Virus record (IMG/VR): IMGVR_UViG_3300045988_107080
Reading direction: 5' to 3' (one strand)
DNA: 56,542 nucleotides
DNA from: a virus
A program made the position numbers and the translations under genes. Shown in pieces: positions 1-20,405 of this stretch. The notes under the pieces are model-generated. The model did no database searches. It was not told the origin of the DNA and worked only from the letters and a program-made list of their open reading frames with translations. The first letter of the stretch is position 1, and the number at the start of each line of letters is the position of its first letter.

Positions 1-85
1 ATTTTTTTTTCAAATTCTCCATAAAATTCGCGAAAATTACATTCCATATTATGAAGAGAAAGTTAGGATGAAACCGGAACGGTCG
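1..85. repeat. terminal redundancy copy 1 (identical to 56458-56542)
   Basis: Read directly: A-T9-CAAATTCTCC...GGATGAAACCGGAACGGTCG occurs at both ends of the window, and the window stops exactly at the end of copy 2. Confidence 0.95.
27..58 (+). promoter_or_regulatory. conserved bipartite promoter-like motif, copy A
   Basis: TTCGCGAAAA-TTACATTCCATA-TTATGAAGAG. Followed by a non-coding tandem-hairpin segment. Confidence 0.5.
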
Positions 86-175
86 TATACAGACATGTAT
101 GAATCCGTGTAATAAAGTGGATAAACCGGTTGGTGTCGTATGTAGGTATGCATGAATCACCATTCTCTTTTATAT
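59..175 (+). ncRNA. candidate short non-coding transcript with two tandem ~52-nt hairpin repeats
   Basis: No ORF longer than 13 codons. Repeat units lie at about 68-110 and 120-163, with conserved AAACCGG, GTCGTAT and ATGAATC blocks and covarying stems (79-82/105-108 versus 131-135/158-162; inner stems 87-91/96-100 versus 140-144/149-153). The segment sits between motif copy A and a T-rich TTTTATATTT block. Confidence 0.3.
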
Positions 176-177
176 TT

Positions 178-210
178 TTCCGCGAAAATCACATATCCTA
201 TTATGAAGAG
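178..210 (+). promoter_or_regulatory. conserved bipartite promoter-like motif, copy B
   Basis: TTCCGCGAAAA-TCACATATCCTA-TTATGAAGAG, 36 nt upstream of the ATG at 246. Confidence 0.5.
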
Positions 211-245
211 GAAACTCTAATATATTTTTAAAGGATTGACAGATT

Positions 246-446
246 ATGGAAAACAGAACAGTTCAAATCGAAGGTTTATTACTTACAGGTAAAAGTGCGA
301 GTATTATTTCTAGCTTGGCGATAGTCGGAGCTGCAAGTATTATTGGCGGGTTTACTTATGTAACTTATAAACTCGGTCAAAGATCTGCTGAAAAGAAAAG
401 TCTTAAAGATTCAATTAAAAAATTTATAGAGTTATTCGAGAAGTAA
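246..446 (+). CDS. small early membrane protein (one TM)
   Basis: ATG with an upstream AAAGGA. Hydrophobic stretch ASIISSLAIVGAASIIGGFTYVTY. A terminator follows. Confidence 0.6.
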   Translation: MENRTVQIEGLLLTGKSASIISSLAIVGAASIIGGFTYVTYKLGQRSAEKKSLKDSIKKFIELFEK

Positions 447-451
447 AAAGA

Positions 452-480
452 TTGAGCCAACTATGGCTCTTTCTTTTTTA
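452..480 (+). terminator. intrinsic terminator
   Basis: GAGCC-AACTAT-GGCTC stem-loop followed by a T-rich run. Confidence 0.55.
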
Positions 481-559
481 ATTTAGTTTTCATTTTCCGT
501 ACACAGATAACGGAATTTGTTTATATTTTTCTAAAGGATTTTAGAAAGGAGGAAGCAAA

Positions 560-778
560 ATGGAATATTTATTTGCTGTCGTAGGTGTACTTGTCGGGTC
601 GATTATTTCGAACATTATATTTTCTATTCGATACCGGAAGGCTGGAACTCTTAGGATCGATCATTCAAATCCTGAGAAGGATGTCTACAGAATAGAGATA
701 GACGATCTTGACGGATTATCTAAGAAAAAGCATGTCATCCTCAAAGTGGACAATAACGCAAACCTTTCGCAGAAATAA
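560..778 (+). CDS. small early membrane protein (N-terminal TM)
   Basis: RBS AGAAAGGAGGAAGCAAAATG. N-terminus is MEYLFAVVGVLVGSIISNIIF. Confidence 0.6.
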   Translation: MEYLFAVVGVLVGSIISNIIFSIRYRKAGTLRIDHSNPEKDVYRIEIDDLDGLSKKKHVILKVDNNANLSQK

Positions 779-833
779 CAGATCCTATTATGGAACATAT
801 TAGTTCACACAATTTTGAAAGGAGAAATGCAAA

Positions 834-1217
834 ATGAGCATTCCAACATTGTTAGAAGTAGAAATTGAGGATCAGTTCGAGCATTTAAGTAAGGTGGAGT
901 TCGGATCTGAACAGTACAAAGCAGGGGTAGATGGACTTACCAAGCTTCTTGACAGATCTATGGAGATGAACAAACTCGAATATGAGGCTGAGGAAGGACG
1001 AAAGAATCGAGAAATCGATAATGAGTTCAAACAGAAGCAAATGGACGAGGAGAAAAAATCTCGATGGGTTCAGCATGCGATAAGCGTGGCAAGTATAATA
1101 TTGCCAATAGCGGCAGCTGTTTGGGGAACGAAAGCATCATTTAAATTCGAAGAGACCGGAACAGTAACGACAATAATGGGAAGAGGCTGGATTAACAAAC
1201 TACTTCCAAAGAAGTGA
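834..1217 (+). CDS. tail-anchored coiled-coil membrane protein
   Basis: RBS GAAAGGAGAAATGCAAAATG. Charged helical N-terminal part and C-terminal TM ISVASIILPIAAAVWG. Confidence 0.6.
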   Translation: MSIPTLLEVEIEDQFEHLSKVEFGSEQYKAGVDGLTKLLDRSMEMNKLEYEAEEGRKNREIDNEFKQKQMDEEKKSRWVQHAISVASIILPIAAAVWGTKASFKFEETGTVTTIMGRGWINKLLPKK

Positions 1218-1279
1218 GGAACTTAATGTACCAGGGGAGGAGATTATGGAAACATATTCTCTTCCTCTTTATATTTAAA

Positions 1280-1312
1280 TTCGCAAAAAATACAATCGCT
1301 ATTATGAAGGAG
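1280..1312 (+). promoter_or_regulatory. conserved bipartite promoter-like motif, copy C (degenerate CGCAAAAA)
   Basis: TTCGCAAAAA-ATACAATCGCTA-TTATGAAGGAG. The RBS is embedded, and the ATG at 1325 follows. Confidence 0.45.
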
Positions 1313-1324
1313 GTGAAATGCTTT

Positions 1325-1480
1325 ATGCAAAAGCTTAATATCGATTTTGTCAAAGTATTGGGATATTTAGGAGCTGGACTTAGTGTGGCCGCAACGGTCG
1401 TATCAGGTATAGCTCAGAAAAAGTCAATGAATGAGACAATCGCAAAAGAAGTTGCAGAAGCAATGAAAAACCATCAGTAA
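1325..1480 (+). CDS. small membrane protein
   Basis: The track ORF 1214-1480 was trimmed to the ATG 11 nt after AAGGAGG. TM segment is VLGYLGAGLSVAATVVSGI. Confidence 0.5.
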   Translation: MQKLNIDFVKVLGYLGAGLSVAATVVSGIAQKKSMNETIAKEVAEAMKNHQ

Positions 1481-1486
1481 AATAGG

Positions 1487-1510
1487 AGAGGCTCAAAAGG
1501 CCTCTTTTAT
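1487..1510 (+). terminator. intrinsic terminator
   Basis: AGAGGC-TCAAAAG-GCCTCT followed by TTTT. Confidence 0.7.
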
Positions 1511-1541
1511 TTTTAATAGCGAATCTGAAAGGAGAAAACAA

Positions 1542-2330
1542 ATGGGTAAAGAAAATTTAACAAATGTCATTAAGAATATTCAGACGACATTAACAAAGCA
1601 TAGTCCTGAAATTCTTACTGGTCTCGGAATTGCTGGTATGGTGTCGACTACAGTTCTTGCTGTAAAGGCGACTCCGAAAGCTCTTAGGTTGATAGAAAAT
1701 GCTGAAAATGAATTGTCAAATGAGCGTTGCGAAGATGTTAAACTTAAGGTGCTTGATATAGTAAAACTTGTATGGCCTTGTTACATACCTGCCGTTATAA
1801 CTTGCGGAGTATCGATCGCTTGCCTTATAGGAGGAACTACAGTAAATGTTAAACGAACTGCTGCTCTGGCAACAGCTTACAAAATCTCCGAAACAGCTCT
1901 TAACGAGTATAAAGACGCTGTTGTTGAGACAATTGGAGAGAAAAAAGAGAAGGTTGTTAAGGACAAAGTTGCTGAAAAGAAGATTAAGAAAAACCCAGTT
2001 GGCAATAGCGAGGTCATTATAACAAAGAAAGGCGAAACTCTTTGCTATGATGGAGCATTCGGACGATATTTTAAGTCTGATATTGACACTATTAAGAAGG
2101 CCGTAAATGTTATCAACCGAAACATTATTACGGATATGTATGCTTCATTGAACGACTTTTATGACCTTATCGGTCTGAAACCTATCAATGTCGGATACGA
2201 TCTTGGTTGGAATATTGACGATGGAGAAATTGATATTTACTTTAGCTCGCAATTGGCAGAAGATGGCACGCCATGTCTTGTAATTGACTACAGCGTTGCG
2301 CCAAAATGCGATTTCTCAAGTTTTATGTAA
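1542..2330 (+). CDS. membrane-anchored early protein, paralog of 4012-5013
   Basis: Good RBS. N-terminal TM ILTGLGIAGMVSTTVLAVKATPKA and a second hydrophobic segment. AxAYK..EY...VVE..G core and a C-terminal LNDFYDLIGL...GW module, all shared with 4012-5013. Confidence 0.6.
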   Translation: MGKENLTNVIKNIQTTLTKHSPEILTGLGIAGMVSTTVLAVKATPKALRLIENAENELSNERCEDVKLKVLDIVKLVWPCYIPAVITCGVSIACLIGGTTVNVKRTAALATAYKISETALNEYKDAVVETIGEKKEKVVKDKVAEKKIKKNPVGNSEVIITKKGETLCYDGAFGRYFKSDIDTIKKAVNVINRNIITDMYASLNDFYDLIGLKPINVGYDLGWNIDDGEIDIYFSSQLAEDGTPCLVIDYSVAPKCDFSSFM

Positions 2331-2333
2331 AAA

Positions 2334-2366
2334 GACGCGAAAAAAACATTTCATATTATGAAGAAC
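2334..2366 (+). promoter_or_regulatory. conserved bipartite promoter-like motif, copy D
   Basis: GACGCGAAAA-AAACATTTCATA-TTATGAAGAAC, upstream of the gene at 2408. Confidence 0.5.
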
Positions 2367-2407
2367 GTACCACGTTTTTCGATATTTTGTAAAGGAGAGA
2401 CTTTATC

Positions 2408-2686
2408 ATGGAAGAAATCAAAAACGAGAACGTAAATGACATCGAGGAAATCGAAGAGGTTGAGGCAGAGCCTGAAGGATCAGGAGTTATTGAGGTCGCA
2501 GCAATCGTCGTCGGAGCTGTTGTTGCTGTAGGAGCGGGCATTGGAGCCCTCGTCTACAAGAACAGAGAAAAGATTGACGAATGGCGCATCAACAAACTTA
2601 GAAAAAAGGGCTATATGATCTCTAAAATCGAAGATGACAAATGCGTCAATATCGAAGATTCCGATGAAGTAGAAGAAGCGGAGTAA
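2408..2686 (+). CDS. acidic small membrane protein
   Basis: RBS AAAGGAGAG. Acidic N- and C-termini flank the TM VAAIVVGAVVAVGAGIGALVY. Confidence 0.6.
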   Translation: MEEIKNENVNDIEEIEEVEAEPEGSGVIEVAAIVVGAVVAVGAGIGALVYKNREKIDEWRINKLRKKGYMISKIEDDKCVNIEDSDEVEEAE

Positions 2687-2763
2687 AGAAAAACATAAGT
2701 TCTAAAAAGGGTAAGTACCTGTAACAGGGTGCTTTCCCTTTTCCTTTTTATAAGGAGAAAAGT

Positions 2764-3093
2764 ATGGATATTTCTTATGCAGGCTATCTCACGCCAAATT
2801 GTATCGGTTGTAGGCATTGGATGGATGGTACGAAGTACGATTTAGGTTGCGGACATCCAACTGGTGATTGCCGATATTTGAAGACAGATAAAACTAAAAG
2901 AAACCATTTATATTACTATGATGGTCCAGTAATGAGATTTGATGACTGTTTGGTTAGGTCTTGGAATGGAACAACAAGTGCTGTCTCTAAGGAGAAAGCA
3001 AGAGCAAATCTTACCTATCAATGGAAAATTGCTCATGGATATTCTCCAAGATCTAAAATCACATTACCTGGAACACTAATATTAATAGATTGA
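2764..3093 (+). CDS. Cys-rich hypothetical protein
   Basis: RBS TAAGGAGAAAAGTATG. Several Cys/His residues (CIGCRHW...GCGHPTGDC). Confidence 0.5.
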   Translation: MDISYAGYLTPNCIGCRHWMDGTKYDLGCGHPTGDCRYLKTDKTKRNHLYYYDGPVMRFDDCLVRSWNGTTSAVSKEKARANLTYQWKIAHGYSPRSKITLPGTLILID

Positions 3094-3109
3094 AAGGAGC
3101 AAACTGACA

Positions 3110-3721
3110 GTGGAAGACTATAAGCCTAATTCACACAGGTCAAAAGAAAAGGCAGCAGCTGCAGCAAAAACTGAGAAAAAGGTTGAAAAAGTTGTTAATG
3201 GAACTGTAAAAACCAAGAAGAAATCTGAGATGAATAAACTCAAAGACTTATTTATTTCAGAAGATGCGGCGAATGTAAAGTCTTATATTCTCATGGACGT
3301 TCTTGTACCTGCTGTGAAGAAAGCAATCTCGGATATTGTTACGGACGGTGTTTCGATGATTCTGTTCGGAACTACCGGAAATAGGTCAAGTAGAGGCAAT
3401 AGTTCATTTATATCATATGACAAATTTTCTCGAAGAGAAGACGATCGTCGATATGGAAGCGCTCGGACAAGATCGGGATATAATTTCGACGATATTTATC
3501 TCGAAAGCAGAGGCGAAGCAGAGGAAGTTCTGTCGAGAATGGACGAGCTTATTGACATGTACGGTGTAGTTTCTGTAGCAGATCTTTATGATCTTGTTGG
3601 AATAACTGGAAATTATACAGATAATAAATATGGTTGGACAAATATTCGTAATGCAGAACCGGTAAGAGCTATGGGCGGAGGTTACATGCTCAAACTGCCT
3701 AAGGCTCTGCCTATTAATTAA
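3110..3721 (+). CDS. hypothetical protein sharing a C-terminal module with 1542 and 4012
   Basis: GTG start 10 nt after GAAAGGAG. C-terminal VSVADLYDLVGITGNYTDNKYGW resembles the LxDxYDLxG...GW module of the two paralogs. Confidence 0.55.
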   Translation: MEDYKPNSHRSKEKAAAAAKTEKKVEKVVNGTVKTKKKSEMNKLKDLFISEDAANVKSYILMDVLVPAVKKAISDIVTDGVSMILFGTTGNRSSRGNSSFISYDKFSRREDDRRYGSARTRSGYNFDDIYLESRGEAEEVLSRMDELIDMYGVVSVADLYDLVGITGNYTDNKYGWTNIRNAEPVRAMGGGYMLKLPKALPIN

Positions 3722-3733
3722 AGGAGGATATTT

Positions 3734-4009
3734 ATGAGCATTGGATTCACAGATATGGACATTAGGCGGACAGACCCTATGGTAGAGCATCCGTCTCATT
3801 ATATTTCTGAAACTGGACTTGAGACGATCGATGTAATAGAGGCGTTTACATTTGATCTCAAGGGGATAGAAGCAACCGATACAGGCAATATTATTAAGTA
3901 TATTTGCCGTTGGAAACAGAAGAATGGCCTTCAGGATCTGAAGAAGGCAATGTGGTACTTAAATCATCTTATTAATCATGTCGAAAAAATGGAAAAGGAG
4001 AACGACTAA
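3734..4009 (+). CDS. DUF3310-like phage protein
   Basis: RBS AAAGGAGG. HPSHY...ETIDVIEA...GNIIKYICRWKQKNG..DLKKAMWYL matches my recollection of the DUF3310 pattern. Confidence 0.5.
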   Translation: MSIGFTDMDIRRTDPMVEHPSHYISETGLETIDVIEAFTFDLKGIEATDTGNIIKYICRWKQKNGLQDLKKAMWYLNHLINHVEKMEKEND

Positions 4010-4011
4010 CT

Positions 4012-5013
4012 ATGAAAAAGTTCGAAATCACTAAAAACATGACTAGAGCGTTTGGCAAGGCCGGACTTACTTGTAAGAAGTATGCCCCTGAAGCTCTTGT
4101 AATAGCTGGTATCGTAGGTGTCGTGACAAGTGCTGTCATGGCATGTAAGGCAACAACCAAGGTAAACGATATTATCGAAGAGACTAAAGAGAACACGCAT
4201 GATCTTCATCTTGTAGCCACTGCAGCAGGTCTAAAAGAGGCTACGGACGAGTTCTCGAATGAAGATATTCGAAAGATTGATATTCTTTCTTCAAAAGAGG
4301 ACGTCAAGAACTACACTGCACAGGACCTTAAGAAAGACACGACAATTATATATACTCAGACTGCTGTTAAGTTTATAAAGCTTTATGGTCCTTCTGTAGT
4401 ACTTGGCGCTCTGTCTATAACTAGCATACTCGCGTCTAACAATATTCTTCGTAAGAGAAATGTGGCTCTTGCAGCTGCGTATGCTACTGTCGATAAGGGC
4501 TTTAAGGAATATAGAAGCCGTGTTGTCGAACGTTTCGGAAAAGATATGGACCGAGAGCTTAAGTACAACATCAAGGCTAAAGAAATCGAAGAAACTACAA
4601 AAAATTCAAAGGGCAAAGAAAAGACTGTAAAAAAGTCGATAGAAGTCGCTGATGTAAATGAGCATAGTGATTATGCACGATTCTTTGACGAGCTTTGCAC
4701 AGGTTGGAAGAGGGACGCAGAGTATAACCTTATGTTCCTTAAGCATCAGCAGAATTATGCCAACGAAAAGCTGCAGAAGCAGGGATATTTGTTCCTCAAT
4801 GATGTGTATGATATGCTCGGTATTCCGAAAACAAAGGCCGGTCAGGTAGTAGGCTGGATTTATGACGAAGCGCATCCTGATATTTATGATAACTTCGTAG
4901 ACTTCGGAATTTATGATCTGTATAATGAAAAAGCACGCGACTTTGTGAATGGTCGTGAAAAGAGCATTCTTCTTGACTTCAATGTCGACGGCAATATTCT
5001 CGATCTCATCTGA
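4012..5013 (+). CDS. membrane-anchored early protein, paralog of 1542-2330
   Basis: RBS AAAAGGAG. TM ALVIAGIVGVVTSAVMACKATTK, core ALAAAYATVDKGFKEYRSRVVERFG, C-terminal LNDVYDMLGIPKTKAGQVVGW. Confidence 0.6.
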   Translation: MKKFEITKNMTRAFGKAGLTCKKYAPEALVIAGIVGVVTSAVMACKATTKVNDIIEETKENTHDLHLVATAAGLKEATDEFSNEDIRKIDILSSKEDVKNYTAQDLKKDTTIIYTQTAVKFIKLYGPSVVLGALSITSILASNNILRKRNVALAAAYATVDKGFKEYRSRVVERFGKDMDRELKYNIKAKEIEETTKNSKGKEKTVKKSIEVADVNEHSDYARFFDELCTGWKRDAEYNLMFLKHQQNYANEKLQKQGYLFLNDVYDMLGIPKTKAGQVVGWIYDEAHPDIYDNFVDFGIYDLYNEKARDFVNGREKSILLDFNVDGNILDLI

Positions 5014-5027
5014 AAGGGAGACAAATA

Positions 5028-5267
5028 ATGACTGGTAAAGAGTTAATCGTTTATATTTTGCAGAATGATCTCGAAGATGAAGTTATTTTTCAGAACAACC
5101 GTTTTATCGGATTTGCAAGTGAAGAAGAGCTGGCATCTAAATTTTCAGTCGGTGTGGAGACCATCAAATGGTGGTATTCACTCGGCTGGATAAAAGGGGT
5201 TAAAATCGGAAAATCTATATTTTTCCCGGCAGGAATAACCGATCCACGATTGCAAGAACATGAATAA
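5028..5267 (+). CDS. small DNA-binding protein (excisionase/MerR-like HTH)
   Basis: ELASKFSVGVETIKWWYSLGWIKGVKIGKSIFFP resembles an HTH_17-type winged helix. Confidence 0.4.
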   Translation: MTGKELIVYILQNDLEDEVIFQNNRFIGFASEEELASKFSVGVETIKWWYSLGWIKGVKIGKSIFFPAGITDPRLQEHE

Positions 5268-5293
5268 AAACGTTTAAAATGGAGGACTAAAGA

Positions 5294-5911
5294 ATGAACA
5301 GTAAACTGTTATCTTTTCTGGCATTTGTAATGGGTGCCTCAGTAGGTTCGCTTGTCACATGGAAGTGCATAGAGAAAAAGTATAAGCAGATCGCTCAGGA
5401 GGAGATTGATTCTGTTAAGGAAACGTATGCAAAGATGCGAAAGGACGACCTTGAGGCTAAGAAAGTAGATATTGAAGCAGCGAAAGCAAAACTTCATCCT
5501 GCTGAGTCTGAGAAGGCAGAAACTCCTGAAGTTCAGCCCGAAGAAGTAAAGGAGTATGAAGACGTTATAGCTAGACATAATTATACAAGTTATTCAAATA
5601 ATATTAATGAGAAAGGGGGAGACGTGATGACCGATAGACCTTATGTAATTTCTCCGGATGAGTTCGGCGATTATCCGGATTACGAGACGATAAGTCTCAC
5701 ATATTATAATGATAAAGTCCTTACTGACGAGTATAATGAAATCGTAGACGATATCGATGATCTTATTGGAGAGGACTCGCTTAACCATTTTGGTGAATAC
5801 GAGGACGACTCTGTATTCGTTAGAAACGATGCTTTGAAAGTTGATTATGAGATTTTGCTTGATTCTGCAAACTATAGTGATATTGCGCCTCAGAATCAGG
5901 TGGATGATTAA
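5294..5911 (+). CDS. membrane-anchored acidic protein
   Basis: N-terminal TM LLSFLAFVMGASVGSLVTW. Very acidic C-terminal domain (YVISPDEFGDYPDYE...GEYEDDSVFVRND). Confidence 0.55.
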   Translation: MNSKLLSFLAFVMGASVGSLVTWKCIEKKYKQIAQEEIDSVKETYAKMRKDDLEAKKVDIEAAKAKLHPAESEKAETPEVQPEEVKEYEDVIARHNYTSYSNNINEKGGDVMTDRPYVISPDEFGDYPDYETISLTYYNDKVLTDEYNEIVDDIDDLIGEDSLNHFGEYEDDSVFVRNDALKVDYEILLDSANYSDIAPQNQVDD

Positions 5912-6450
5912 TGACAATCGCAGATAAAATTCAAAACGAATATTTTGAATGGTTGTATGACTTAGTTTGCAAGGATAGATATTCAAAGCAAATTTCTTAC
6001 AGAAAGCTTTTGTCATGCTTACACAATACAGAGTTCACTTATATTTTACGAAGAGATAGAAATAGAGCTGAGGACGGATTAAATTTACGATATCGCTTTG
6101 CTCTTCGACATCACGGGGATGAAGAATCATATTTGGATGGCCCGTGTAGCGTTTTGGAAATGATGATTGCATTGGCTATACGCTGTGAGGAAAGCATCAT
6201 GGACAATCCTGCATATGGAGACAGAACTAAACAATGGTTCTGGGGGATGATAGTAAATATGGGTCTCAGCTCTATGACGGATGATGTATTTAACAGGCAG
6301 TACGTAGAAGCAGCGGTCACAAGGTTGCTTAATCGCGAGTATGAACCCGATGGCAAAGGCGGATTATTTACAATTAAGGATTGTGACCGTGATCTACGGA
6401 CGGTTGAAATTTGGTATCAGCTCTGCTGGTATTTGGATGAAATCGTATAA
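5911..6450 (+). CDS. hypothetical protein
   Basis: TAATG overlap with the upstream gene. Clean 179-aa ORF with no motif I recognise. Confidence 0.5.
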   Translation: MTIADKIQNEYFEWLYDLVCKDRYSKQISYRKLLSCLHNTEFTYILRRDRNRAEDGLNLRYRFALRHHGDEESYLDGPCSVLEMMIALAIRCEESIMDNPAYGDRTKQWFWGMIVNMGLSSMTDDVFNRQYVEAAVTRLLNREYEPDGKGGLFTIKDCDRDLRTVEIWYQLCWYLDEIV

Positions 6451-6494
6451 ATAAAAGCTGGAGAAGAGTCTAAGAAAGGAGATTAAATAATGAA

Positions 6495-13953: not shown

Positions 13954-13954
13954 G

Positions 13955-13988
13955 TTCGCGTAAAAAACATTCTCCTTTATGAAAGGAG
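13955..13988 (+). promoter_or_regulatory. conserved bipartite promoter-like motif, copy E
   Basis: TTCGCGTAAA-AAACATTCTCCT-TTATGAAAGGAG. The GGAG serves as RBS for the ATG at 13999. Confidence 0.5.
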
Positions 13989-13998
13989 ACGATTAAAA

Positions 13999-14271: not shown

Positions 14272-14286
14272 TTACATAAAAAGTTT

Positions 14287-14320
14287 AAGACTCAATGGAA
14301 ACATTGGGTCTTTTACTTTT
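14287..14320 (+). terminator. intrinsic terminator
   Basis: AAGACTCAA (14287-14295) pairs with TTGGGTCTT (14304-14312) with one U-G, then a T-run and TTTTATATTTT. Confidence 0.65.
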
Positions 14321-14342
14321 ATATTTTAAGGAGGAAGCAGAC

Positions 14343-14507
14343 ATGTCAGACTATTCAAAATTCGAGACCGTCGCAAAAATTCAAGAAATACTTGAGGAAT
14401 CCGGACTTTATTGGTCATGTTCGTATTCACCTAGTAACGATTCATATAGCATATTTATTTGCGACGAAGACGGAGAAATAATTTCGAGGGGGTTAAATAA
14501 TGAATGA
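14343..14507 (+). CDS. hypothetical small protein
   Basis: Track ORF 14295 was trimmed because its first codons lie inside the terminator hairpin. AAGGAGGAAGCAGACATG gives the start at 14343. Confidence 0.5.
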   Translation: MSDYSKFETVAKIQEILEESGLYWSCSYSPSNDSYSIFICDEDGEIISRGLNNE

Positions 14508-14901
14508 GTACAAACTTAAAATCTATTACGCCCATCATCAGTGGAAGTACGGAACTAAGATCGAGGATTATGAACTCAGTCTTATACAATCATATTTTCC
14601 TAATGCAACGATATTTAATCCTTCTGCCGATCTCAACGTTGAAGGAAAAAGCGAAGACGAGATAATGAACATATGTCTCAATCAAATAAAGATATCCGAC
14701 ATGGTTGTATTTAGCAGTATGGACGGACTTGTCGGTATAGGCGTATTTAAAGAAGTAACACACGCTAAAGATCTCGGAATGCCCGTATATTACATATATA
14801 AAGACGAGCTCCGATATGACTTCGATATAACTGCTAATTGGAAATCTAATGGAAACGACCGAACATTTGGTCGTGTAGATCTTTTGGATATTAATCGATA
14901 A
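14500..14901 (+). CDS. nucleoside 2-deoxyribosyltransferase-like / DUF4406-like protein (tentative)
   Basis: KIYYAHH...IFNPS...SDMVVFSS..G.VGIGVFKEVTHAKDLGMPVYYI resembles the Rossmann-like NDT family pattern. Assigned by eye only. Confidence 0.3.
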   Translation: MNEYKLKIYYAHHQWKYGTKIEDYELSLIQSYFPNATIFNPSADLNVEGKSEDEIMNICLNQIKISDMVVFSSMDGLVGIGVFKEVTHAKDLGMPVYYIYKDELRYDFDITANWKSNGNDRTFGRVDLLDINR

Positions 14902-14915
14902 GGAGGAAGTAAACT

Positions 14916-15065
14916 ATGCAAACAATTGTATATTTCACAAAGGAAGAAATTCTTGATCTTAAGAACGGCAAAGAGGTTAAGATGCATGGAACGTTGCCTA
15001 ACGGACGAAGAAATGACTTTATATTTAAAGGAGATTTTGTCGATGAGAAAGCGAAAAGCAATTAA
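14916..15065 (+). CDS. small hypothetical protein (49 aa, below the track cutoff)
   Basis: AAGGAGGAAGTAAACTATG. Translates to MQTIVYFTKEEILDLKNGKEVKMHGTLPNGRRNDFIFKGDFVDEKAKSN. Confidence 0.4.
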   Translation: MQTIVYFTKEEILDLKNGKEVKMHGTLPNGRRNDFIFKGDFVDEKAKSN

Positions 15066-15387
15066 AATTGGGCAAAAAGTTATATTTGATCCGTTACAAT
15101 ATGGTATATGCTACATACCATGCTCGGCTCCGGAATACGTAATAGGAATTATAACAGAAATTTATGACGATCATCGATGGTTTTTAGTTGAATACGAAAC
15201 ACCAAGAAACGGTACTCTAAAAATGGGATTTAAATTTGATGATTTCGGTTTTAGAGGAAAAAATCGCAATTCAGTTGTTATTCCAATAAACAGTAGACGT
15301 GAAGAACTCATAATGAGGCATTATGTATATCACGGAGATCTTGCTCAATACTACATTTCTAAGAAAATTTCTATGAAAGGAAACTGA
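15043..15387 (+). CDS. hypothetical protein
   Basis: Track ORF 14926 was trimmed to the ATG after AAAGGAG (MRKRKAIKIGQKVIFDP...). Confidence 0.5.
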   Translation: MRKRKAIKIGQKVIFDPLQYGICYIPCSAPEYVIGIITEIYDDHRWFLVEYETPRNGTLKMGFKFDDFGFRGKNRNSVVIPINSRREELIMRHYVYHGDLAQYYISKKISMKGN

Positions 15388-15392
15388 TATTC

Positions 15393-15557
15393 ATGTTTAC
15401 TCAAATGTTTTTAGATCTTCTTGCCATTGTTGGGATTGTCATTCTCCTTGGCATAGGAATTATAGTTGCTATTGCAGTTATGACAGCGATAATCTTAACG
15501 GTAAACGCTGTTAAATCTGTTTTGCATGAAATTAAGGAGGAAACCAAGCATGAATGA
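15393..15557 (+). CDS. small hydrophobic membrane peptide (54 aa)
   Basis: Hand translation: MFTQMFLDLLAIVGIVILLGIGIIVAIAVMTAIILTVNAVKSVLHEIKEETKHE. It fits the + strand gene flow better than the antisense track ORF 15401-15667. Confidence 0.4.
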   Translation: MFTQMFLDLLAIVGIVILLGIGIIVAIAVMTAIILTVNAVKSVLHEIKEETKHE

Positions 15558-15717
15558 AGATGGAATGAAAGAAGTATATTTCGGCATATATTGCAAGACT
15601 TGCAAATATTTTGATATGGATGAAAATTCGCTTGATAGTCCTTGCGATGAATGCCTAAGTTACTCAAGCAATCTATATTCTCATAAACCTGTTAAATACA
15701 AAGAGGAGGAAAAGTAA
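15550..15717 (+). CDS. small zinc-ribbon-like protein
   Basis: AAGGAGGAAACCAAGCATG. Contains CKTCKYF...CDEC. Confidence 0.5.
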   Translation: MNEDGMKEVYFGIYCKTCKYFDMDENSLDSPCDECLSYSSNLYSHKPVKYKEEEK

Positions 15718-15957
15718 ATGGAAGACGATAACATGTTTCGCATAGATGCAGATAAAGATGCGCTTACTGAGATGCTAAAATTCAAAGCTTATATCGAACT
15801 GTTTTCATTATTTTGTCCAGAAGACGATTCGAACTTTAGAAAATTAAAAGCATGTCTAATGATATTTATGGAGCATGGAATACCTCTTAATACCGGTATC
15901 GATATATTAAAAGAGATGGTAGAAAAGATGAACAAGATAGATGAGGAGGAAAAGTAA
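15718..15957 (+). CDS. hypothetical protein
   Basis: TAAATG junction with GAGGAGG upstream. Confidence 0.5.
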   Translation: MEDDNMFRIDADKDALTEMLKFKAYIELFSLFCPEDDSNFRKLKACLMIFMEHGIPLNTGIDILKEMVEKMNKIDEEEK

Positions 15958-16305
15958 ATGGAAGACAGATGCATATCTTGTGGAGCGGTTGTTCCAGAGG
16001 GAACTATGGTTTGCCCGACATGCGAATACGAAGCTAAACATATTCAGGAAGAGTCTGCAGAGCATATGTCTGAAACAGAATCAAAAACACATAAACGTCT
16101 CGTTGAACTTGTAAAAGCTGCTGGTAGGCATCTGATTAATAATGCAGATAACATTGTCGGAGTTGACGATTTGATAACTGCTTTGTCAATTAATGTTGAT
16201 TTCTTTGTTGAAAGTTCGGATCCCACATTTCCGACAATCTCTGTTACTAGAGAGCATGCTTCAAGAGAGTTTATGTACGTATACGAAAATAAAGAATTAT
16301 TTTAA
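15958..16305 (+). CDS. hypothetical protein with N-terminal zinc ribbon
   Basis: CISCGAVVPEGTMVCPTCEY. TAAATG junction with GAGGAGG upstream. Confidence 0.5.
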   Translation: MEDRCISCGAVVPEGTMVCPTCEYEAKHIQEESAEHMSETESKTHKRLVELVKAAGRHLINNADNIVGVDDLITALSINVDFFVESSDPTFPTISVTREHASREFMYVYENKELF

Positions 16306-16319
16306 GGAGATATAAAACT

Positions 16320-16955
16320 ATGAAAAAGTTAAAGCTTAGAGACCAAGAAATAATTAAGGACACTCTTTCGGTAATCCTTTGTATGGCTATATTTTGCTTA
16401 TGTGCGCTTCAGTTTAATGTTGTAAATGCAAAGGCTATGGAGGCTACGCAAGGTGTTGGAATTCCCTATGTAACAAGAGTAGATATTCCTATCGACGATC
16501 CAGAACCTTCTGTTATATTTGAAGAGGATGTTGTAGAAAAACCAAAAGAAGAAATTGATGAGACATCCGATATTTCTGAAGAGGCTATAGAGAGCGGTCC
16601 GAGGTTTTATTTGTCCGACTACGAACGTTCAGAGCTTGAGTCACTTGTAATGGCTGAGTCTGGTGCAGAGTCTTATGAAGGACAAATGGGCGTTGCTCAG
16701 TGTATTTTAAATGCTTGCGAAAAAGAGAATAAGCAGCCCAGTGAGATCGCCATAATGTATCGCTATACGAAACATAGGCCAGCTCCGAACGAAAGCGTTA
16801 AAGAGGCCGTTCGTGCTGTATTCGATAGAGGTGAAGTAATTACGGATGCTAAAATTCTTTATTTTTATGCGCCGGCTCTCGTTTACAGTGCTTGGCATGA
16901 GTCGCAGACATATGTACTTACTGTCGGTGGTCACAAATTCTTTGCGGAGGCTTAA
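16320..16955 (+). CDS. exported SleB-like cell wall hydrolase (Hydrolase_2-like)
   Basis: N-terminal signal/TM LSVILCMAIFCLCALQFNVVNA. LESLVMAESGAESYEGQMGVAQCILNA resembles the SleB-family core. Confidence 0.55.
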   Translation: MKKLKLRDQEIIKDTLSVILCMAIFCLCALQFNVVNAKAMEATQGVGIPYVTRVDIPIDDPEPSVIFEEDVVEKPKEEIDETSDISEEAIESGPRFYLSDYERSELESLVMAESGAESYEGQMGVAQCILNACEKENKQPSEIAIMYRYTKHRPAPNESVKEAVRAVFDRGEVITDAKILYFYAPALVYSAWHESQTYVLTVGGHKFFAEA

Positions 16956-16961
16956 AATAAA

Positions 16962-17147
16962 ATGGATATGAGCATGGAATTTATTATAAGAACAGTTCTT
17001 GAATCGCTGTTAGTTATTTTACTAATCATCGGATTCATTCGTGAGAGAAAGTTGATAAATTACGAAATTATGATACATCAACGTTTGATACAGGTTGTCA
17101 AATATTGCCAAGAAATACTTTCTAAATTTTATTATAACAAATTATAA
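16962..17147 (+). CDS. small membrane protein
   Basis: TM LESLLVILLIIGFI. GCGGAGG lies 11 nt upstream. Confidence 0.4.
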   Translation: MDMSMEFIIRTVLESLLVILLIIGFIRERKLINYEIMIHQRLIQVVKYCQEILSKFYYNKL

Positions 17148-17159
17148 GGAGAAAGCAAA

Positions 17160-17885
17160 ATGCTTAAAATTGAAAATACTGAGGTGGTTGGCTGGGAAGC
17201 AGCCATAAGAGGAATGCGCAATCCTATGAATTCGTGGGATAAGAGTGACAGTCGTTTTAGTTTACTTGACGATTGCGGTGACTGTACTCATTGTAATCTT
17301 CGATTCGATGAATGCAACGAACAGCAAATCGGCCCAAATGATCTTGACCTTATGACTCGTCTACGCAATGCTGGCACAGACCATCGTAAATTTATGCGGA
17401 TGATTACGGTGTATCTTGATATCACTGCTCCGCTATATTGGTGGAAGGAGTTCGATACATATAAGGTAGGTACGGTTGCAAACTCTTGCTCGACGATGCA
17501 TAAGATTCATGCGAAGGAGTTTACTTTTGAGGATTTCTCGTGTGAACATTTAGTACTCGCTGGTCGATGTAATCTAAAGAACACTATTGGTCTTTTAAAT
17601 TCCGCACGAGAAATATACTTAGAGTGGGATTCTATGGATGAAGAAAGACGCGGATGTGTTGATCAAAACATTCACGAGAAAAAAGATTTATGGTGGCAGA
17701 TGATTCAGCTTCTTCCTAGCTCTTACAACCAAAAACGTACGGTCATGCTTAATTATGAGGTTCTAGCGAATATTTATAAGTCCCGTCGAAATCATAAGCT
17801 TGACGAGTGGCATACGTTCTGCGATTGGATCGAGAGTCTGCCATATTCGGAGTTGATTATAGGAAAAACGGATGGCGCGAACTAA
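17160..17885 (+). CDS. ThyX-like protein lacking the RHR signature
   Basis: By-eye alignment to Thermotoga ThyX: GTDHRKFMRMITVYLDITAPLYWWKEFDTYKVGTVANSCSTMH versus [41 protein letters not shown]. RHR is replaced by DTY, and SGRY by STMH. Confidence 0.45.
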   Translation: MLKIENTEVVGWEAAIRGMRNPMNSWDKSDSRFSLLDDCGDCTHCNLRFDECNEQQIGPNDLDLMTRLRNAGTDHRKFMRMITVYLDITAPLYWWKEFDTYKVGTVANSCSTMHKIHAKEFTFEDFSCEHLVLAGRCNLKNTIGLLNSAREIYLEWDSMDEERRGCVDQNIHEKKDLWWQMIQLLPSSYNQKRTVMLNYEVLANIYKSRRNHKLDEWHTFCDWIESLPYSELIIGKTDGAN

Positions 17886-17907
17886 ACATGCTCCTTTATG
17901 AAAGGAG
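17874..17907 (+). promoter_or_regulatory. conserved bipartite promoter-like motif, copy F
   Basis: GGCGCGAACT-AAACATGCTCCT-TTATGAAAGGAG. The 5' half overlaps the last codons and stop of the 17160-17885 gene. Confidence 0.5.
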
Positions 17908-17917
17908 TGTGATATTT

Positions 17918-18106
17918 ATGGCAAGAGAATATGTTGTTAAAGCTACTAAGTATGGAAGAGACTGGAAGAAAATCGGAGAAGGTTTGGATTTTCTAGAAGA
18001 TAATAAAAAATATCGACTAGAATTTCATGCTTACGGATTAATGCAGGCTATCCGAGCAAAAATAGCGTTTATACGAAATAAAAGATTTAAATATTACACT
18101 TATTAA
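17918..18106 (+). CDS. hypothetical protein
   Basis: Track ORF 17807 was trimmed to the ATG after motif copy F and its RBS (MAREYVVKATKYG...). Confidence 0.5.
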   Translation: MAREYVVKATKYGRDWKKIGEGLDFLEDNKKYRLEFHAYGLMQAIRAKIAFIRNKRFKYYTY

Positions 18107-18111
18107 GAGTG

Positions 18112-18145
18112 AGGCTCAGTGATAATGCTGGGCCTTTGCTCTTTT
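18112..18145 (+). terminator. intrinsic terminator
   Basis: AGGCTCAG (18112-18119) pairs with CTGGGCCT (18128-18135) with one wobble. T-rich tail and TTTTATATTTT follow. Confidence 0.55.
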
Positions 18146-18168
18146 ATATTTTGAAAGGAGAAAAAGTA

Positions 18169-18444
18169 ATGGCTACACTGAGTAACATCACAGTCAAGAA
18201 AGAACTCCGTTTATGTAAAGTAAACAAAGAACTTGGATATTTCCACTGCTGGGAGCAGTATGCTGATGTAATTGCTCCTGGTTTAGCGGTTGGTTCTCAT
18301 CCTGGAGGTCAATATTCACGGATATTTGGCATTATTGAATTTGATGACCGGATTGAGCGAGTTGACCCATCAAAAGTTCAGTTTGTTGACGAGACTCATA
18401 ATTTTTTACATATTATGACGGACGACATTTCGCACGCGAACTAA
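18169..18444 (+). CDS. hypothetical protein
   Basis: Track ORF 18109 was trimmed because its 5' part lies in the terminator. GAAAGGAGAAAAAGTAATG. Confidence 0.5.
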   Translation: MATLSNITVKKELRLCKVNKELGYFHCWEQYADVIAPGLAVGSHPGGQYSRIFGIIEFDDRIERVDPSKVQFVDETHNFLHIMTDDISHAN

Positions 18445-18467
18445 ACATCTCCTTTAATGAAAGGAGG
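18433..18467 (+). promoter_or_regulatory. conserved bipartite promoter-like motif, copy G
   Basis: CACGCGAACT-AAACATCTCCTT-TAATGAAAGGAGG. The 5' half overlaps the last codons and stop of the 18169-18444 gene. Confidence 0.5.
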
Positions 18468-18477
18468 TGCAATACTT

Positions 18478-18651
18478 ATGTCATTGGAAAAAACTATACT
18501 AAAACTGGCAACTCGTTATCATGCAAACTTAATTGATATTCACAATGCATTGCACGCTTTAGGTTTAAGAAGCGACGAACAAGCAGAGAAATTCAATAAG
18601 AAGCATATGATGAAGCTTGTTGAGATGTATAATAGAAGAGGCTTGATATAG
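18478..18651 (+). CDS. hypothetical protein
   Basis: ATG 8 nt after the AAAGGAGG of motif copy G. The ATG at 18457 is part of the motif itself. Confidence 0.5.
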   Translation: MSLEKTILKLATRYHANLIDIHNALHALGLRSDEQAEKFNKKHMMKLVEMYNRRGLI

Positions 18652-18672
18652 TATTACTAAAAGATGAGATTA

Positions 18673-18710
18673 AAGCCTTAGTTAAAATATACTAGGGCTT
18701 TTCTCTTTTT
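18673..18710 (+). terminator. intrinsic terminator
   Basis: AAGCCTTAG (18673-18681) pairs with CTAGGGCTT (18692-18700) with one U-G, then TTTCTCTTTTT. Confidence 0.65.
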
Positions 18711-18742
18711 CGCGAAAACGGCATTTCCTATTATGAAAGGAG
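18709..18742 (+). promoter_or_regulatory. conserved bipartite promoter-like motif, copy H
   Basis: TTCGCGAAAA-CGGCATTTCCTA-TTATGAAAGGAG, directly after the terminator at 18673-18710. Confidence 0.5.
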
Positions 18743-18751
18743 TGTTTGGTT

Positions 18752-18973
18752 ATGTTTAATTTTTTAAGAAAAAAGGTTAAAAAAGAAGATCCAATATTAA
18801 AAGAGATAGACAGGCAAACTGAAGAATTGAAAGCTATCAGTGATTCTATGCGTAAAAACAACGAATCAATAGAAGCTGATATTAAAGAGGCGGAAAGTTT
18901 ATTACTTAATATGGGATATTCAAAAGAAGATTTGGAGAAATTAAAAACTAAACCAAAACTTAAACTTTTATAA
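18752..18973 (+). CDS. hypothetical coiled-coil protein
   Basis: ATG 9 nt after the AAAGGAG of motif copy H. Confidence 0.5.
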   Translation: MFNFLRKKVKKEDPILKEIDRQTEELKAISDSMRKNNESIEADIKEAESLLLNMGYSKEDLEKLKTKPKLKLL

Positions 18974-18984
18974 AAATAAAGAGG

Positions 18985-19014
18985 GACTCAGAAAAATCTG
19001 AGTCTTTTCTTTTT
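18985..19014 (+). terminator. intrinsic terminator
   Basis: GACTCAGA-AAAA-TCTGAGTC perfect 8-bp stem followed by TTTTCTTTTT. Confidence 0.8.
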
Positions 19015-19044
19015 CGCGAAAAATGCATGCTCCTTTATGAAACA
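19013..19044 (+). promoter_or_regulatory. conserved bipartite promoter-like motif, copy I
   Basis: TTCGCGAAAA-ATGCATGCTCCT-TTATGAAACA, directly after the terminator at 18985-19014. Followed by ~200 nt without a credible ORF. Confidence 0.5.
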
Positions 19045-19240
19045 GAATAAGAAATGATATACAAAACCAGTATATAAGTCTTTTCGGGTAACGGGTGCCC
19101 GAATTAGGTAGTTAAACGAAACAAGAGGCGTGGTCGTCTATGTCGGCATTGCATAAATGTGAATGATAGAGGCAAACTACTGTGTGAAGCGTTGGGCACA
19201 GCTCTGGCTACGGACGAAAACTTATTCTATTTCTTTTATA
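19045..19240 (+). ncRNA. candidate non-coding transcript or structured leader downstream of motif copy I
   Basis: ~200 nt with no RBS-preceded ORF, and locally GC-richer. Hairpin TTCGGG-TAACGGGTG-CCCGAA at about 19084-19104. A degenerate third copy of the GTCGT...ATGT...GCAT...GAAT element lies at about 19133-19165. Confidence 0.25.
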
Positions 19241-19260
19241 TTTGGAAAGGAGAAAGATAC

Positions 19261-19452
19261 ATGAAATTTGTAGTGGATGAACTTCCGTACTATGAAGATT
19301 TTTGCCCATTTTGGGAGACATGTTATGATAATTCAAGCAATGATAAATGCCCTCAACACTGGAGCAAGTATAAAATCTGCTCTGATGACAATCCACATGA
19401 GTGTCATTTTCTTATTGAACTTGAAAGTAAACATTTGAAAGGAGAAACGTAA
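19261..19452 (+). CDS. Cys-rich small protein
   Basis: Track ORF 19159 was trimmed to the ATG after GGAAAGGAGAAAGATAC. Sequence begins MKFVVDELPYYEDFCPFWETCYDNSSNDKCPQHW... Confidence 0.5.
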   Translation: MKFVVDELPYYEDFCPFWETCYDNSSNDKCPQHWSKYKICSDDNPHECHFLIELESKHLKGET

Positions 19453-19743
19453 ATGAAATTCAAAACATATAAATGCAAACGAATTTCTAAAAAGCATTTC
19501 GACGAGATTAAAATTACAAAAGCATTTAAGAAGGCACAGCCGAAGTCCGAAAAGCTCTATGAAAAAGAGATGGAATTTGCCCTACATAAGAAGCTTAGCC
19601 CGATAATTGTTGACGAAAACATGTTCCTTGTGGACGGATATTGTGCTTGGATTATTGCAGACACTACTAAATATCGTGGGCGAAAACTTAAAATTTATAA
19701 AGCAATTGGTTTGGACGTTACTAAAAAGAAAGCAAAAAAGTAA
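19453..19743 (+). CDS. basic hypothetical protein (possible ParB/nuclease-like DGY motif)
   Basis: TAAATG junction. PIIVDENMFLVDGYCAWIIA loosely resembles the ParB N-terminal domain. Confidence 0.3.
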   Translation: MKFKTYKCKRISKKHFDEIKITKAFKKAQPKSEKLYEKEMEFALHKKLSPIIVDENMFLVDGYCAWIIADTTKYRGRKLKIYKAIGLDVTKKKAKK

Positions 19744-19749
19744 TGAAAG

Positions 19750-19786
19750 AAGAGGCTTGGAACAAACCGAGCCTCTTATTTTTATT
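19750..19786 (+). terminator. intrinsic terminator
   Basis: AAGAGGCTTGG-AACAAA-CCGAGCCTCTT followed by ATTTTTATT. Confidence 0.8.
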
Positions 19787-19858
19787 AAAATTGTATGAAA
19801 AAGACCACTTTTTGGCCAAAAACCCGGATATTACCCCTATTTATATTAGCTATGCGAT

Positions 19859-19878
19859 TTTACTAATATATTAGTAAA
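19859..19878. promoter_or_regulatory. perfect 20-bp palindrome, candidate operator
   Basis: TTTACTAATA|TATTAGTAAA read directly. It lies ~80 nt upstream of the XRE-family gene and overlaps TATATT/TAATAT -10-like hexamers. Confidence 0.5.
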
Positions 19879-19959
19879 GTAAGATAGCCGGTTAAAAACC
19901 CATATTTTTCTGGAAAAGTGGGCAGAAACAAAATTATTCAATTAGAGAGGTGCAAATTG

Positions 19960-20346
19960 ATGAATGACACAATATTCGACAGGTTTGAGATGTATTATCC
20001 TTCGATTGCTGCACAAGCAGCGTCGTTTAAGCAAAAAAGCAATTATGTTATTTTTATAACATTGTACGATGGTTCGGTTATTGAGTATAATGATTTGATG
20101 AACAGTTTCCGAACAGTTGTTCCTTATGATGGAAGCGAAGAAAGTTGGAAAAGAGAGTTCGCTCATAGATTAGTCGAACTGATGGTTGATAAGGGATTCG
20201 ATCAATCATATTTGTCCGAGGTATCAGGAGTCTCTCAGCAGAGCATCAGCAATTATATACATAGAAAAACTATGCCTACCGGATTTGTCATCGACAAGCT
20301 TGCAAGAGCATTAGGTTGCGATGTATCTGAGCTTACGGAATTTTAA
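19960..20346 (+). CDS. XRE-family HTH transcriptional regulator with N-terminal extension
   Basis: C-terminal QSYLSEVSGVSQQSISNYIHRKTMPTGFVIDKLARALGCDVSEL. Start taken as the ATG after AGAGAGG. Confidence 0.7.
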   Translation: MNDTIFDRFEMYYPSIAAQAASFKQKSNYVIFITLYDGSVIEYNDLMNSFRTVVPYDGSEESWKREFAHRLVELMVDKGFDQSYLSEVSGVSQQSISNYIHRKTMPTGFVIDKLARALGCDVSELTEF

Positions 20347-20373
20347 ACTACATATTTTTTGGAAGTTTTAAAA

Positions 20374-20405
20374 TTCGCGAAAAAAACATGGACTTTTATG
20401 AGAGG
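20374..20405 (+). promoter_or_regulatory. conserved bipartite promoter-like motif, copy J
   Basis: TTCGCGAAAA-AAACATGGACTT-TTATGAGAGG. Followed by hairpins, then the gene at 20539. Confidence 0.5.

Follow-up and report, generated by a model that had tools for sequence, protein, structure and literature searches.

The early region of the viral genome recorded as IMG/VR IMGVR_UViG_3300045988_107080, a stretch of 56,542 nucleotides hereafter called the window, carries dispersed copies of a motif of about 30 nucleotides that is very probably a promoter. We favour, with some reserve, the more specific reading that these are promoters of this gut phage's own RNA polymerase, the product of the open reading frame (ORF) 21361-24450, and that transcription starts inside their TTATGA sequence. 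A promoter of this kind had been proposed by an earlier reading of the letters (the sequence-only reading), and the proposal is supported by promoter anatomy, by the presence of an RNA polymerase ORF, by the co-occurrence of motif and polymerase in phages and by a geometry that is not that of sigma-70 promoters. The parts of this reading that we infer are the binder of the motif, the RNA start point and the origin of the first polymerase molecules. No description of the motif, or of a promoter for this polymerase family, was found in the literature.

The pattern CGCGAAAA-N12-TTATGAA, with up to two mismatches, occurs ten times in the window, always on the plus strand, against an expectation of 0.38, and none of 100 shuffled sequences contained ten or more matches. 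The dispersed bipartite motif described earlier is therefore real. The matches start at 29, 181, 1282, 2336, 13957, 17876, 18711, 19015, 20376 and 56486; the motif positions of the sequence-only reading are these minus two or three flanking T residues. A copy at 18435 carries the variant TAATGAA with the 12-nucleotide spacing kept, and the fixed spacing noted earlier indeed holds in the copies. Bases 1-85 are identical to the last 85 (56458-56542), and the window is a circularly closed assembly with an 85-bp overlap and a true length of 56457 bp. Because of this terminal identity, the match at 56486 (motif 56484..56515, plus strand) is the copy at 29 seen twice and not an independent one, in agreement with its earlier listing as a duplicate. 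A 42-nucleotide position-weight matrix (PWM) made from the ten independent copies of the window detected two more, a degenerate one on the plus strand (768-794) and one on the minus strand (34818-34792). The statement that all copies lie on the plus strand of the early half was thus nearly true, but the minus-strand copy makes it strictly false. Information content peaks in three blocks, CGCGAAAA, ACAT and (C)T-T(A/T)ATGA followed by purines, the second of which bears out the sub-conservation previously noted within the spacer.

To the left of CGCG, two bases are weakly conserved (0.8 and 0.3 bits). The perfect palindrome TTCGCGAA that had been pointed out is complete in four of the ten independent copies but not in the others, and the dimeric regulator suggested for it finds no support, its left half not being conserved. 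A related idea is that the motif is mainly an operator: a phage DNA-binding protein on the CGCG-centred box, either the XRE-type protein probably encoded at 19918-20346 or the helix-turn-helix (HTH) part of the polymerase acting as a repressor, would switch the early units, the true promoter elements being weak. The palindromic CGCG core, with its four complete copies, speaks for it, as do the single Cro/C1-type HTH protein encoded in the early region and a conserved repeat cluster just upstream of the polymerase-operon copy in many relatives. We nevertheless consider it very unlikely. The motif is strongly asymmetric and its orientation strict (140 to 0 in the bacterial-genome loci described below); some 30 nucleotides are conserved, in three blocks at fixed spacing and at a fixed distance to the ribosome site; two-fold symmetry fails to the left of CGCG; and an operator leaves unexplained why a whole motif stands before an isolated minus-strand gene.

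The surroundings of the motif are those of a promoter. Every copy lies at a gene boundary and is oriented toward the next gene, and the motif as a whole is long, asymmetric, highly conserved, multi-copy, of one orientation and upstream of genes, as a promoter of a phage polymerase would be. Several copies come directly after hairpin terminators, as had been noticed: on the plus strand, the copy at 18709..18740 is directly 3' of terminator 18672-18701, and the copy at 19013..19044, which has no adjacent ribosome site and a leader of about 115 nucleotides, is directly 3' of terminator 18981-19008. Terminator-like sites number 26 in the first 20 kb, against 11.0 ± 3.5 expected, and are at background level from 20 to 56 kb, an enrichment confined to the motif-bearing region. 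All the long ORFs of the window are on the plus strand, and the clearest internal evidence for a promoter comes from the minus-strand copy (34792..34820; CGCATTAT-N12-TTAATGAA; PWM score 25.4), because the isolated opposite-strand gene that it heads needs a promoter of its own. Behind it on the minus strand come a GGAGG and then, at 34521..34777, a 72-residue ORF (34777-34559) with a strong terminator that has a 14-bp stem (34553-34521). This small cassette holds the only minus-strand gene found in the late region and lies after ORF 33854-34510, which itself follows ORF 32125-33897, taken for the large terminase by position only. In the Faecalibacterium prophage FP_oengus, a minus-strand gene (gp68) likewise comes right after the terminase.

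The arrangement of its blocks supports the conclusion that the motif does not have the geometry expected of a sigma-70 promoter. No TTGACA-like -35 hexamer was found 16-18 bp upstream of the -10-like block, where information content is at most 0.8 bits in the ten window sites, and no consensus appears at the -35 positions across 69 unique sites. TTCGCG lies only 14 bp from TATTAT, and taking T(A/T)T(A/T)AT as a -10 element (-12 to -7) would put the conserved upstream box at -30 to -23. At position -11, half of the window copies and almost every FP_oengus copy have a T. The -10 block reads TATTAT in five window copies, CTTTAT, TTTAAT or TTTTAT in the others, TATAAT in Arthrobacter phage Mudcat and CTTTAT in nearly all FP_oengus copies. 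The sequence-only reading, which had called the motif a poor sigmaA promoter, was right that it lacks a -35 box but wrong, for half of the copies, that it lacks a -10-like hexamer ending in T, TATTAT being a decent one. Matches to the sigma-70 consensus are not enriched in the window (83 vs 63 ± 9, 70 vs 55 ± 8 and 44 vs 47 ± 7), and a Pfam scan of 39 small ORFs revealed no sigma or activator domain, the Cro/C1-type protein being the only HTH protein among them.

The position of the ribosome-binding site points in the same direction. The sequence-only reading had the 3' end of the motif supply the GGAG of the next gene; this is true, by direct adjacency, of about half of the window copies but not of the remainder. 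Among the 69 unique sites, 49 have a directly adjacent ribosome site, and in 36 of these the GGAG starts 8 nucleotides after the first T of TTATGA, that is, 4-5 nucleotides past the hexamer. For this reason, a start 7 ± 2 nucleotides past the hexamer would be expected to remove the ribosome site, and a start inside TTATGA would yield a short purine-rich leader that retains it, a geometry like that of T7-type promoters, which extend through +1.

The motif co-occurs with the polymerase across phages of Firmicutes and Actinobacteria. An exact-pattern scan of viral contigs gave mostly single matches indistinguishable from chance and was replaced by loci anchored on the polymerase gene; the scans covered polymerase-bearing relatives and the SPbeta region. 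At 17 such loci from IMG/VR (polymerases 49-99% identical), the strand of the polymerase gene is the only one to carry the motif; between one and eight copies fall in whatever upstream sequence is available (up to 10 kb), and most of these loci have one copy about 0.9-1.0 kb before the polymerase start. Relatives with a 49-74% identical polymerase are among those that bear the motif. At 80 loci from bacterial genomes (1.44 Mb), all 140 matches with a PWM score of at least 20 lie on the gene strand, the opposite strand having none. It had been suggested that conservation and positional bias be looked for over related genomes, and both are found: a copy lies 600-1600 bp upstream of the polymerase start in 75 of the 80 loci. 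Lachnospiraceae, [Ruminococcus] torques ATCC 27756, Blautia, Enterocloster and Cuneatibacter are among the hosts, and many of the loci lie inside large genome contigs, as integrated prophages would (e.g. in [Ruminococcus] torques, Blautia faecis and Cuneatibacter caecimuris).

Among more distant relatives, FP_oengus and Mudcat have the motif in multiple copies with unchanged spacing. The FP_oengus genome (GC 50%), whose polymerase is 42% identical and which encodes a tyrosine integrase, shows GACGCGAAAAAnnCAnnnnnCTTTATGGA in 11 PWM-detected copies within the first 8.7 kb; a further one was recognized by eye before the gene at 4962, and two lie later, one of them before the endonuclease-exonuclease-polymerase operon. 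Mudcat carries five early-region copies of (T/G)CGCG(T/A)AAATTACAYGGGCTATAAT and one before its polymerase operon, with identical block spacing. The polymerase-operon copy is kept in Gordonia phage OhMyWard, Streptomyces phage Rima and MT835495, the last of which (MT835495.1) is uninformative: the scaffold is unverified, includes no more than 2.4 kb ahead of the polymerase gene and has two copies only. In Lactococcus phage 1706, three copies of the downstream half (ACA-N5-TATAGT-AGARAG) persist, joined to an upstream box of another sequence. In about 29 kb of the SPbeta yonK-yonO region, around the unrelated YonO, no copy of the motif was found. That a non-canonical sequence of 30 nucleotides is conserved together with one protein across two host phyla argues for a recognition factor encoded by the phage.

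The candidate for this factor, encoded on the plus strand at 21361-24450, matches phrog_4291 ('RNA-dependent RNA polymerase') with an E-value of 0 and has a DxDGD metal-binding loop (GADFDGDT, residues 555-562), the SGADFDGD of which is invariant across 16 aligned sequences from Arthrobacter, Streptomyces, Gordonia, Lactococcus and Faecalibacterium phages. Sequence searches of the PDB, with the polymerase alone or with the 16-sequence profile, returned no polymerase, and fold comparison alone worked. With an AlphaFold2 model (mean predicted local distance difference test, pLDDT, 74.8), the top Foldseek match in the PDB was QDE-1 (7y7s; E 2.1e-4, probability 0.99), followed by P74-26 gp62 (8f5m; E 6.1e-4), plant RDR2 and, much weaker, Rpb1 of Pol II, which are all two-barrel RNA polymerases; the TM-scores are low (0.2-0.3). 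To judge from this model and the catalytic GADFDGD loop, the protein is a single-chain two-barrel RNA polymerase. It bears an HTH at each end, which makes it the putative reader of the motif. The C-terminal HTH is weakly similar to sigma region 4 (Sigma70_r4_2 at E 1e-4, below the Pfam cut-off), a similarity echoed by precomputed sigma-r4 matches in many homologues, and the N-terminal one is conserved in the alignment of homologues. Similarity to SPbeta YonO is not detectable by BLASTP (E = 0.9), and the enzyme appears from its sequence to belong to a separate family of the same superfamily. At least 8000 proteins match this family at E <= 1e-10. It has been proposed as a putative polymerase and as a signature gene of a supercluster of Actinobacteria and Firmicutes phages (Koert et al., bioRxiv 10.1101/842583); it is among the few genes common to that supercluster and the sole one of them described there with HTH domains, and the word 'promoter' is absent from that article.

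In the mechanism that we propose, the HTH domains of the polymerase would read the duplex blocks CGCGAAAA and ACAT. A spacing of about 10 bp between their first bases (motif positions 1, 11 and 21) should place these two and the TTATGA block on one face of the helix. The AT-rich T(A/T)T(A/T)ATG block would then melt, RNA synthesis would start inside or right at TTATGA, and the purine-rich GA(A/G)AGGAG, with its ribosome-binding site, would become the 5' end of the message. An upstream terminator and one motif promoter would delimit each early transcription unit, and the copy that drives the nuclease/polymerase operon, followed by its leader hairpin and T-run, would provide positive feedback. 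The first polymerase molecules could come from read-through from host promoters, from weak host initiation at the TATAAT-like copies or from delivery with the virion. In FP_oengus, the sequence before the first early gene differs from the motif.

Many copies can also fold as RNA. In about 70% of sites, CAnCTCCT in the spacer is complementary to AGGAGnTG at the ribosome site, and sites with an adjacent ribosome site have a mean minimum free energy of -7.6 kcal/mol, against -3.0 kcal/mol for shuffled sequences. In the window, z-scores range from -3.4 to -5.6: at 13955..13986 (plus strand), CTCCTTT in the spacer pairs with the following AAAGGAG (-8.4 kcal/mol, z -3.4); the copy at 17874..17905 (plus strand), which overlaps the stop of ORF 17160-17885, forms a hairpin of -12.6 kcal/mol (z -5.6); and the TAATGAA copy at 18433..18464 (plus strand), which overlaps the stop of ORF 18109-18444, forms one of -12.7 kcal/mol. 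Covariation is also seen, between the CA(T)n bases of the motif and those flanking GGAG. These foldings and this covariation are what favours a purely RNA role, with the hairpin as a translational operator, processing site or stabilizer and the motif not a promoter at all. We find this scarcely credible. Of the 69 unique sites, 20 lack an adjacent ribosome site and show no hairpin (-3.1 vs -2.6 kcal/mol) yet keep all three blocks, which means that the motif can do without the hairpin; CGCGAAAA, the block with the strongest conservation, is not part of it; little upstream RNA would reach the sites placed directly after terminators; the minus-strand cassette needs a promoter; and no Rfam family was matched in the window at gathering thresholds. 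Within the phage-polymerase reading, the hairpin may instead mask the ribosome site in read-through RNA, or terminate that RNA, and RNA started at the promoter would lack the 5' arm and leave the ribosome site free.

The copy at 20374..20405 (plus strand) is the positionally conserved one and heads an operon made of a small ORF, an exonuclease and the RNA polymerase. It is directly followed by a leader hairpin and T-run (20397..20452, plus strand; -14.6 kcal/mol, z -2.6). The 5' arm starts within TTATGA, 1-5 nucleotides into it in 71 of 84 unique leaders of relatives, and a purine run, GAAGAGAGAGG, pairs with CTTTCTCTTTT. Depending on where the RNA starts, this hairpin would attenuate the polymerase operon or insulate it, stopping read-through only. 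The hairpin and T-run after the promoter of the polymerase operon, kept in almost all relatives, recall lambda PR'-tR'. The idea that the leader hairpin fixes the start site was rejected, as it could equally act on read-through RNA.

Several observations weigh against recognition of the motif by the phage polymerase. The polymerase operon is itself behind a copy in 75 of 80 loci, which creates a bootstrapping problem. Because many relatives are integrated prophages, the host polymerase must be able to start the cascade. Good -10 hexamers (TATAAT or TATTAT) occur in Mudcat, in phage 1706 and in five window copies, making recognition of at least some copies by the host enzyme possible. The canonical intrinsic terminators that flank the units fit the host polymerase at least as well as a possibly flap-less enzyme. 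The HTH sequences of the polymerase are kept in phage 1706 in spite of its different upstream box; the recognition helices of the HTH domains and the upstream box were compared for covariation without any signal, both helices being conserved even in 1706. Finally, the restriction of the motif to early genes matches the situation in SPbeta, where the host polymerase transcribes early genes and YonO late ones (PMC5467207).

The most serious rival is one that we regard as unlikely but not negligible: the motif would be a promoter for the host RNA polymerase, acting alone through T(A/T)T(A/T)AT or with a phage activator or sigma-appropriating factor on CGCGAAAA and ACAT, and the phage polymerase, an early product, would transcribe late genes from a different, single promoter downstream of its gene, like YonO. 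T4 middle promoters have a MotA box centred at -30, no -35 element and a sigma-70 -10 element, and an upstream box at -30 to -23 recalls them; the window motif likewise has no -35 and places a phage-specific box some 10-13 bp before a -10-like hexamer. It differs in that its -11 position is often T and its box is conserved across host phyla, and no MotA or AsiA homologue was found for the window phage. In addition to the location of the polymerase operon behind the motif and the hexamers TATAAT, TATAGT or TATTAT of Mudcat, phage 1706 and five window copies, this explanation accommodates the absence of the motif from the plus strand of the 30-kb late block. It agrees, too, with the restriction of YonO to late genes (PMC5467207) and with the often temperate character of the family, whose programme the host polymerase must start (PMC5883640). 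On the other side are the lack of a -35 element, the T at -11 in half of the window copies and nearly all FP_oengus copies, and the 36 of 49 sites at which a sigma-70-type start would coincide with the ribosome site or lie beyond it. A host-specific element does not explain upstream blocks common to Actinobacteria and Firmicutes phages; no sigma or activator candidate turned up among the 39 small ORFs; and any phage activator meets the same bootstrapping problem.

Another solution to that problem, quite unlikely in our view, is that virions contain the polymerase and inject it along with the genome. On this view, the motif would serve as early promoter for a self-sufficient, sigma-independent, single-chain two-barrel enzyme that reads the duplex through its own fused HTH domains, and the embedded hairpins would terminate read-through RNA or silence its translation. 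In other cos and pac siphoviruses, the end packaged last is usually the first to enter the cell; in the present genome, it would be the end with the polymerase operon. Many IMG/VR contigs stop 200-330 bp past the polymerase gene (about 24660-24780 in the window), where a G/C-rich block at 24705-24790 (GGGGGGGGGTCGCTAAAATTGCACCCCC ... CCGGCCTCCTCAAAAATTCTCCGGGGG), conserved down to a relative with a 58% identical polymerase, is probably a cos site or the physical genome end; the polymerase gene would then be at the right end, like that of Arthrobacter phages. The Mudcat genome has 9-base 3' cohesive ends (PMC5513430), and its polymerase gene lies about 0.3 kb from the right end. From these contig ends and from the position in Mudcat, the polymerase operon is probably located at the physical right end of the genome. 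The homologue in phage 1706, orf75 (L139, 19968-23057), is labelled 'structural protein' in EU081845.1, a label that rests on the GenBank record alone and that is also borne there by the small early-region ORFs orf62 and orf71. If it derives from virion mass spectrometry, the polymerase may be packaged.

The closest precedent for a motif serving as the promoter of a two-barrel phage polymerase would be, by analogy, Thermus phage P23-45, which has two monomeric enzymes of this type (gp96 in the virion and gp64, non-virion), with their own conserved promoter motifs in the early region; relatives without the virion-polymerase fusion also lack its AT-rich motif (PMC10770324). In both cases, the phage encodes a two-barrel polymerase of a single chain and has conserved motifs grouped in front of early genes; P74-26 gp62, a homologue, ranks second among the structural matches to the window polymerase. 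However, the motif sequences are unrelated, the window enzyme has an HTH fused at both ends, P23-45 has two polymerase genes where one is seen in the window, and the window starts are predicted from sequence. Promoters of the T7/SP6 type are long, asymmetric and conserved through the start into the purine-rich transcribed region, and are found in multiple copies and one orientation, each specific for the phage enzyme. The window motif probably also runs through its start site into a purine-rich region. T7-type enzymes, in contrast, are right-handed single-subunit polymerases unrelated to the two-barrel ones, and it is from host promoters that T7 expresses its polymerase gene, while that of the window lies behind the motif itself. 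The early promoters of the N4 virion polymerase include a short inverted repeat with a 5-7 bp stem and a 3-nucleotide loop, and three window copies can form a stem of 7-11 bp with a 3-nucleotide loop centred on the ATG of the motif. This hairpin, however, always involves the ribosome site and is missing from 20 of 69 sites, so that it is not a defining feature, and the N4 enzyme is T7-like, not two-barrel. YonO, a single-chain polymerase of a temperate Firmicute phage, distantly related to multisubunit enzymes like that of the window, has one mapped start site, upstream of yonK, serves late genes, and its promoter sequence is still undefined (PMC5467207). It differs by its remote sequence (BLASTP E = 0.9) and by the absence of the motif from its region, the window motif being multi-copy and located in early regions.

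The other copies, all on the plus strand, can be described briefly. Copy 1 (27..58; PWM score 44.8) has no adjacent ribosome site, and 125 apparently non-coding nucleotides separate it from copy 2 (179..210), which lies upstream of ORF 246-446. A degenerate copy, missed by the sequence-only reading, is found at 766..797 (CGCAGAAA-N12-TTATGGA; PWM score 12.1), between ORFs 560-778 and 834-1217. The copy at 1280..1311 comes after a terminator-like hairpin and has a GGAGG directly 3' to it; the start of its ORF is probably at 1325. The copy at 2334..2365 heads a long replication operon (2408-13953) that encodes DUF6353 proteins, a primase-polymerase, a nuclease and a helicase. The replicative enzyme of this operon is a fused primase-polymerase of 1357 residues (6495-10568; phrog_4210, E = 0; DUF5906). 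Two paralogous DUF6353 proteins are encoded in the early region (1542-2330 and 4012-5013; E 4e-85 and 4e-81), and FP_oengus has several (gp15, gp18 and gp22). At the 18433 copy, the ATG within TAATGAA is in frame with the downstream gene 18457-18651, and the mechanical ORF call begins within the promoter; translation probably starts instead at the ATG of 18478, behind AGGAGG. Behind the two copies without an adjacent ribosome site, at 56-180 and 19042-19158, more than 100 nucleotides contain no convincing ORF, and relatives have similar ORF-poor stretches with small hairpins. These stretches may be small RNAs or long leaders; the fold of the 125-nucleotide stretch 56-180 is not significantly better than that of shuffled sequences (z -1.5). 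A megablast of positions 1-20000 against GenBank phages gave no match.

Just upstream of the promoter of the polymerase operon, phages of Firmicutes and Actinobacteria share a cluster of short repeats (AGTGGGCA/TGCCCACT and TGGCCAAAA), found at 19810-19924 in the window and, in relatives, at 7888-8162 (L135), 7844-8102 (L132), 8153-8915 (L131), 18320-18490 (L138), 18683-18908 (L140) and 1216-1513 (L144). Relatives have up to nine copies, the window retains only TTTTGGCCAAAA and AAAAGTGGGCAG, and in phage 1706 the corresponding place is taken by a triple repeat of different sequence (CTATCACGAAAAAAC...). The cluster could be origin iterons or regulator sites. FP_oengus (L138, 8588-51344) also contains TGATATTT 27 times on the plus strand and never on the minus strand, with 0.5 expected; most of these copies are inside genes and several are directly before start codons.

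Promoters specific for phage polymerases are already known. On the best-supported reading of these sequences, the present one would belong to an uncharacterised and very widespread family of polymerases. Two-barrel enzymes of this family, with their fused HTH domains, are indeed very common: hundreds of isolated actinobacteriophages encode them, as do prophages of Lachnospiraceae and Faecalibacterium in the human gut. If the reading is true, the motif provides a defined template for in vitro transcription, chromatin immunoprecipitation and structural work on this family, and a simple rule for annotating early transcription units in many gut phages, and it might serve, with its polymerase, as an orthogonal expression pair in Gram-positive hosts. 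It would also be a possible case of promoter recognition built into a minimal, single-chain relative of the cellular RNA polymerases.

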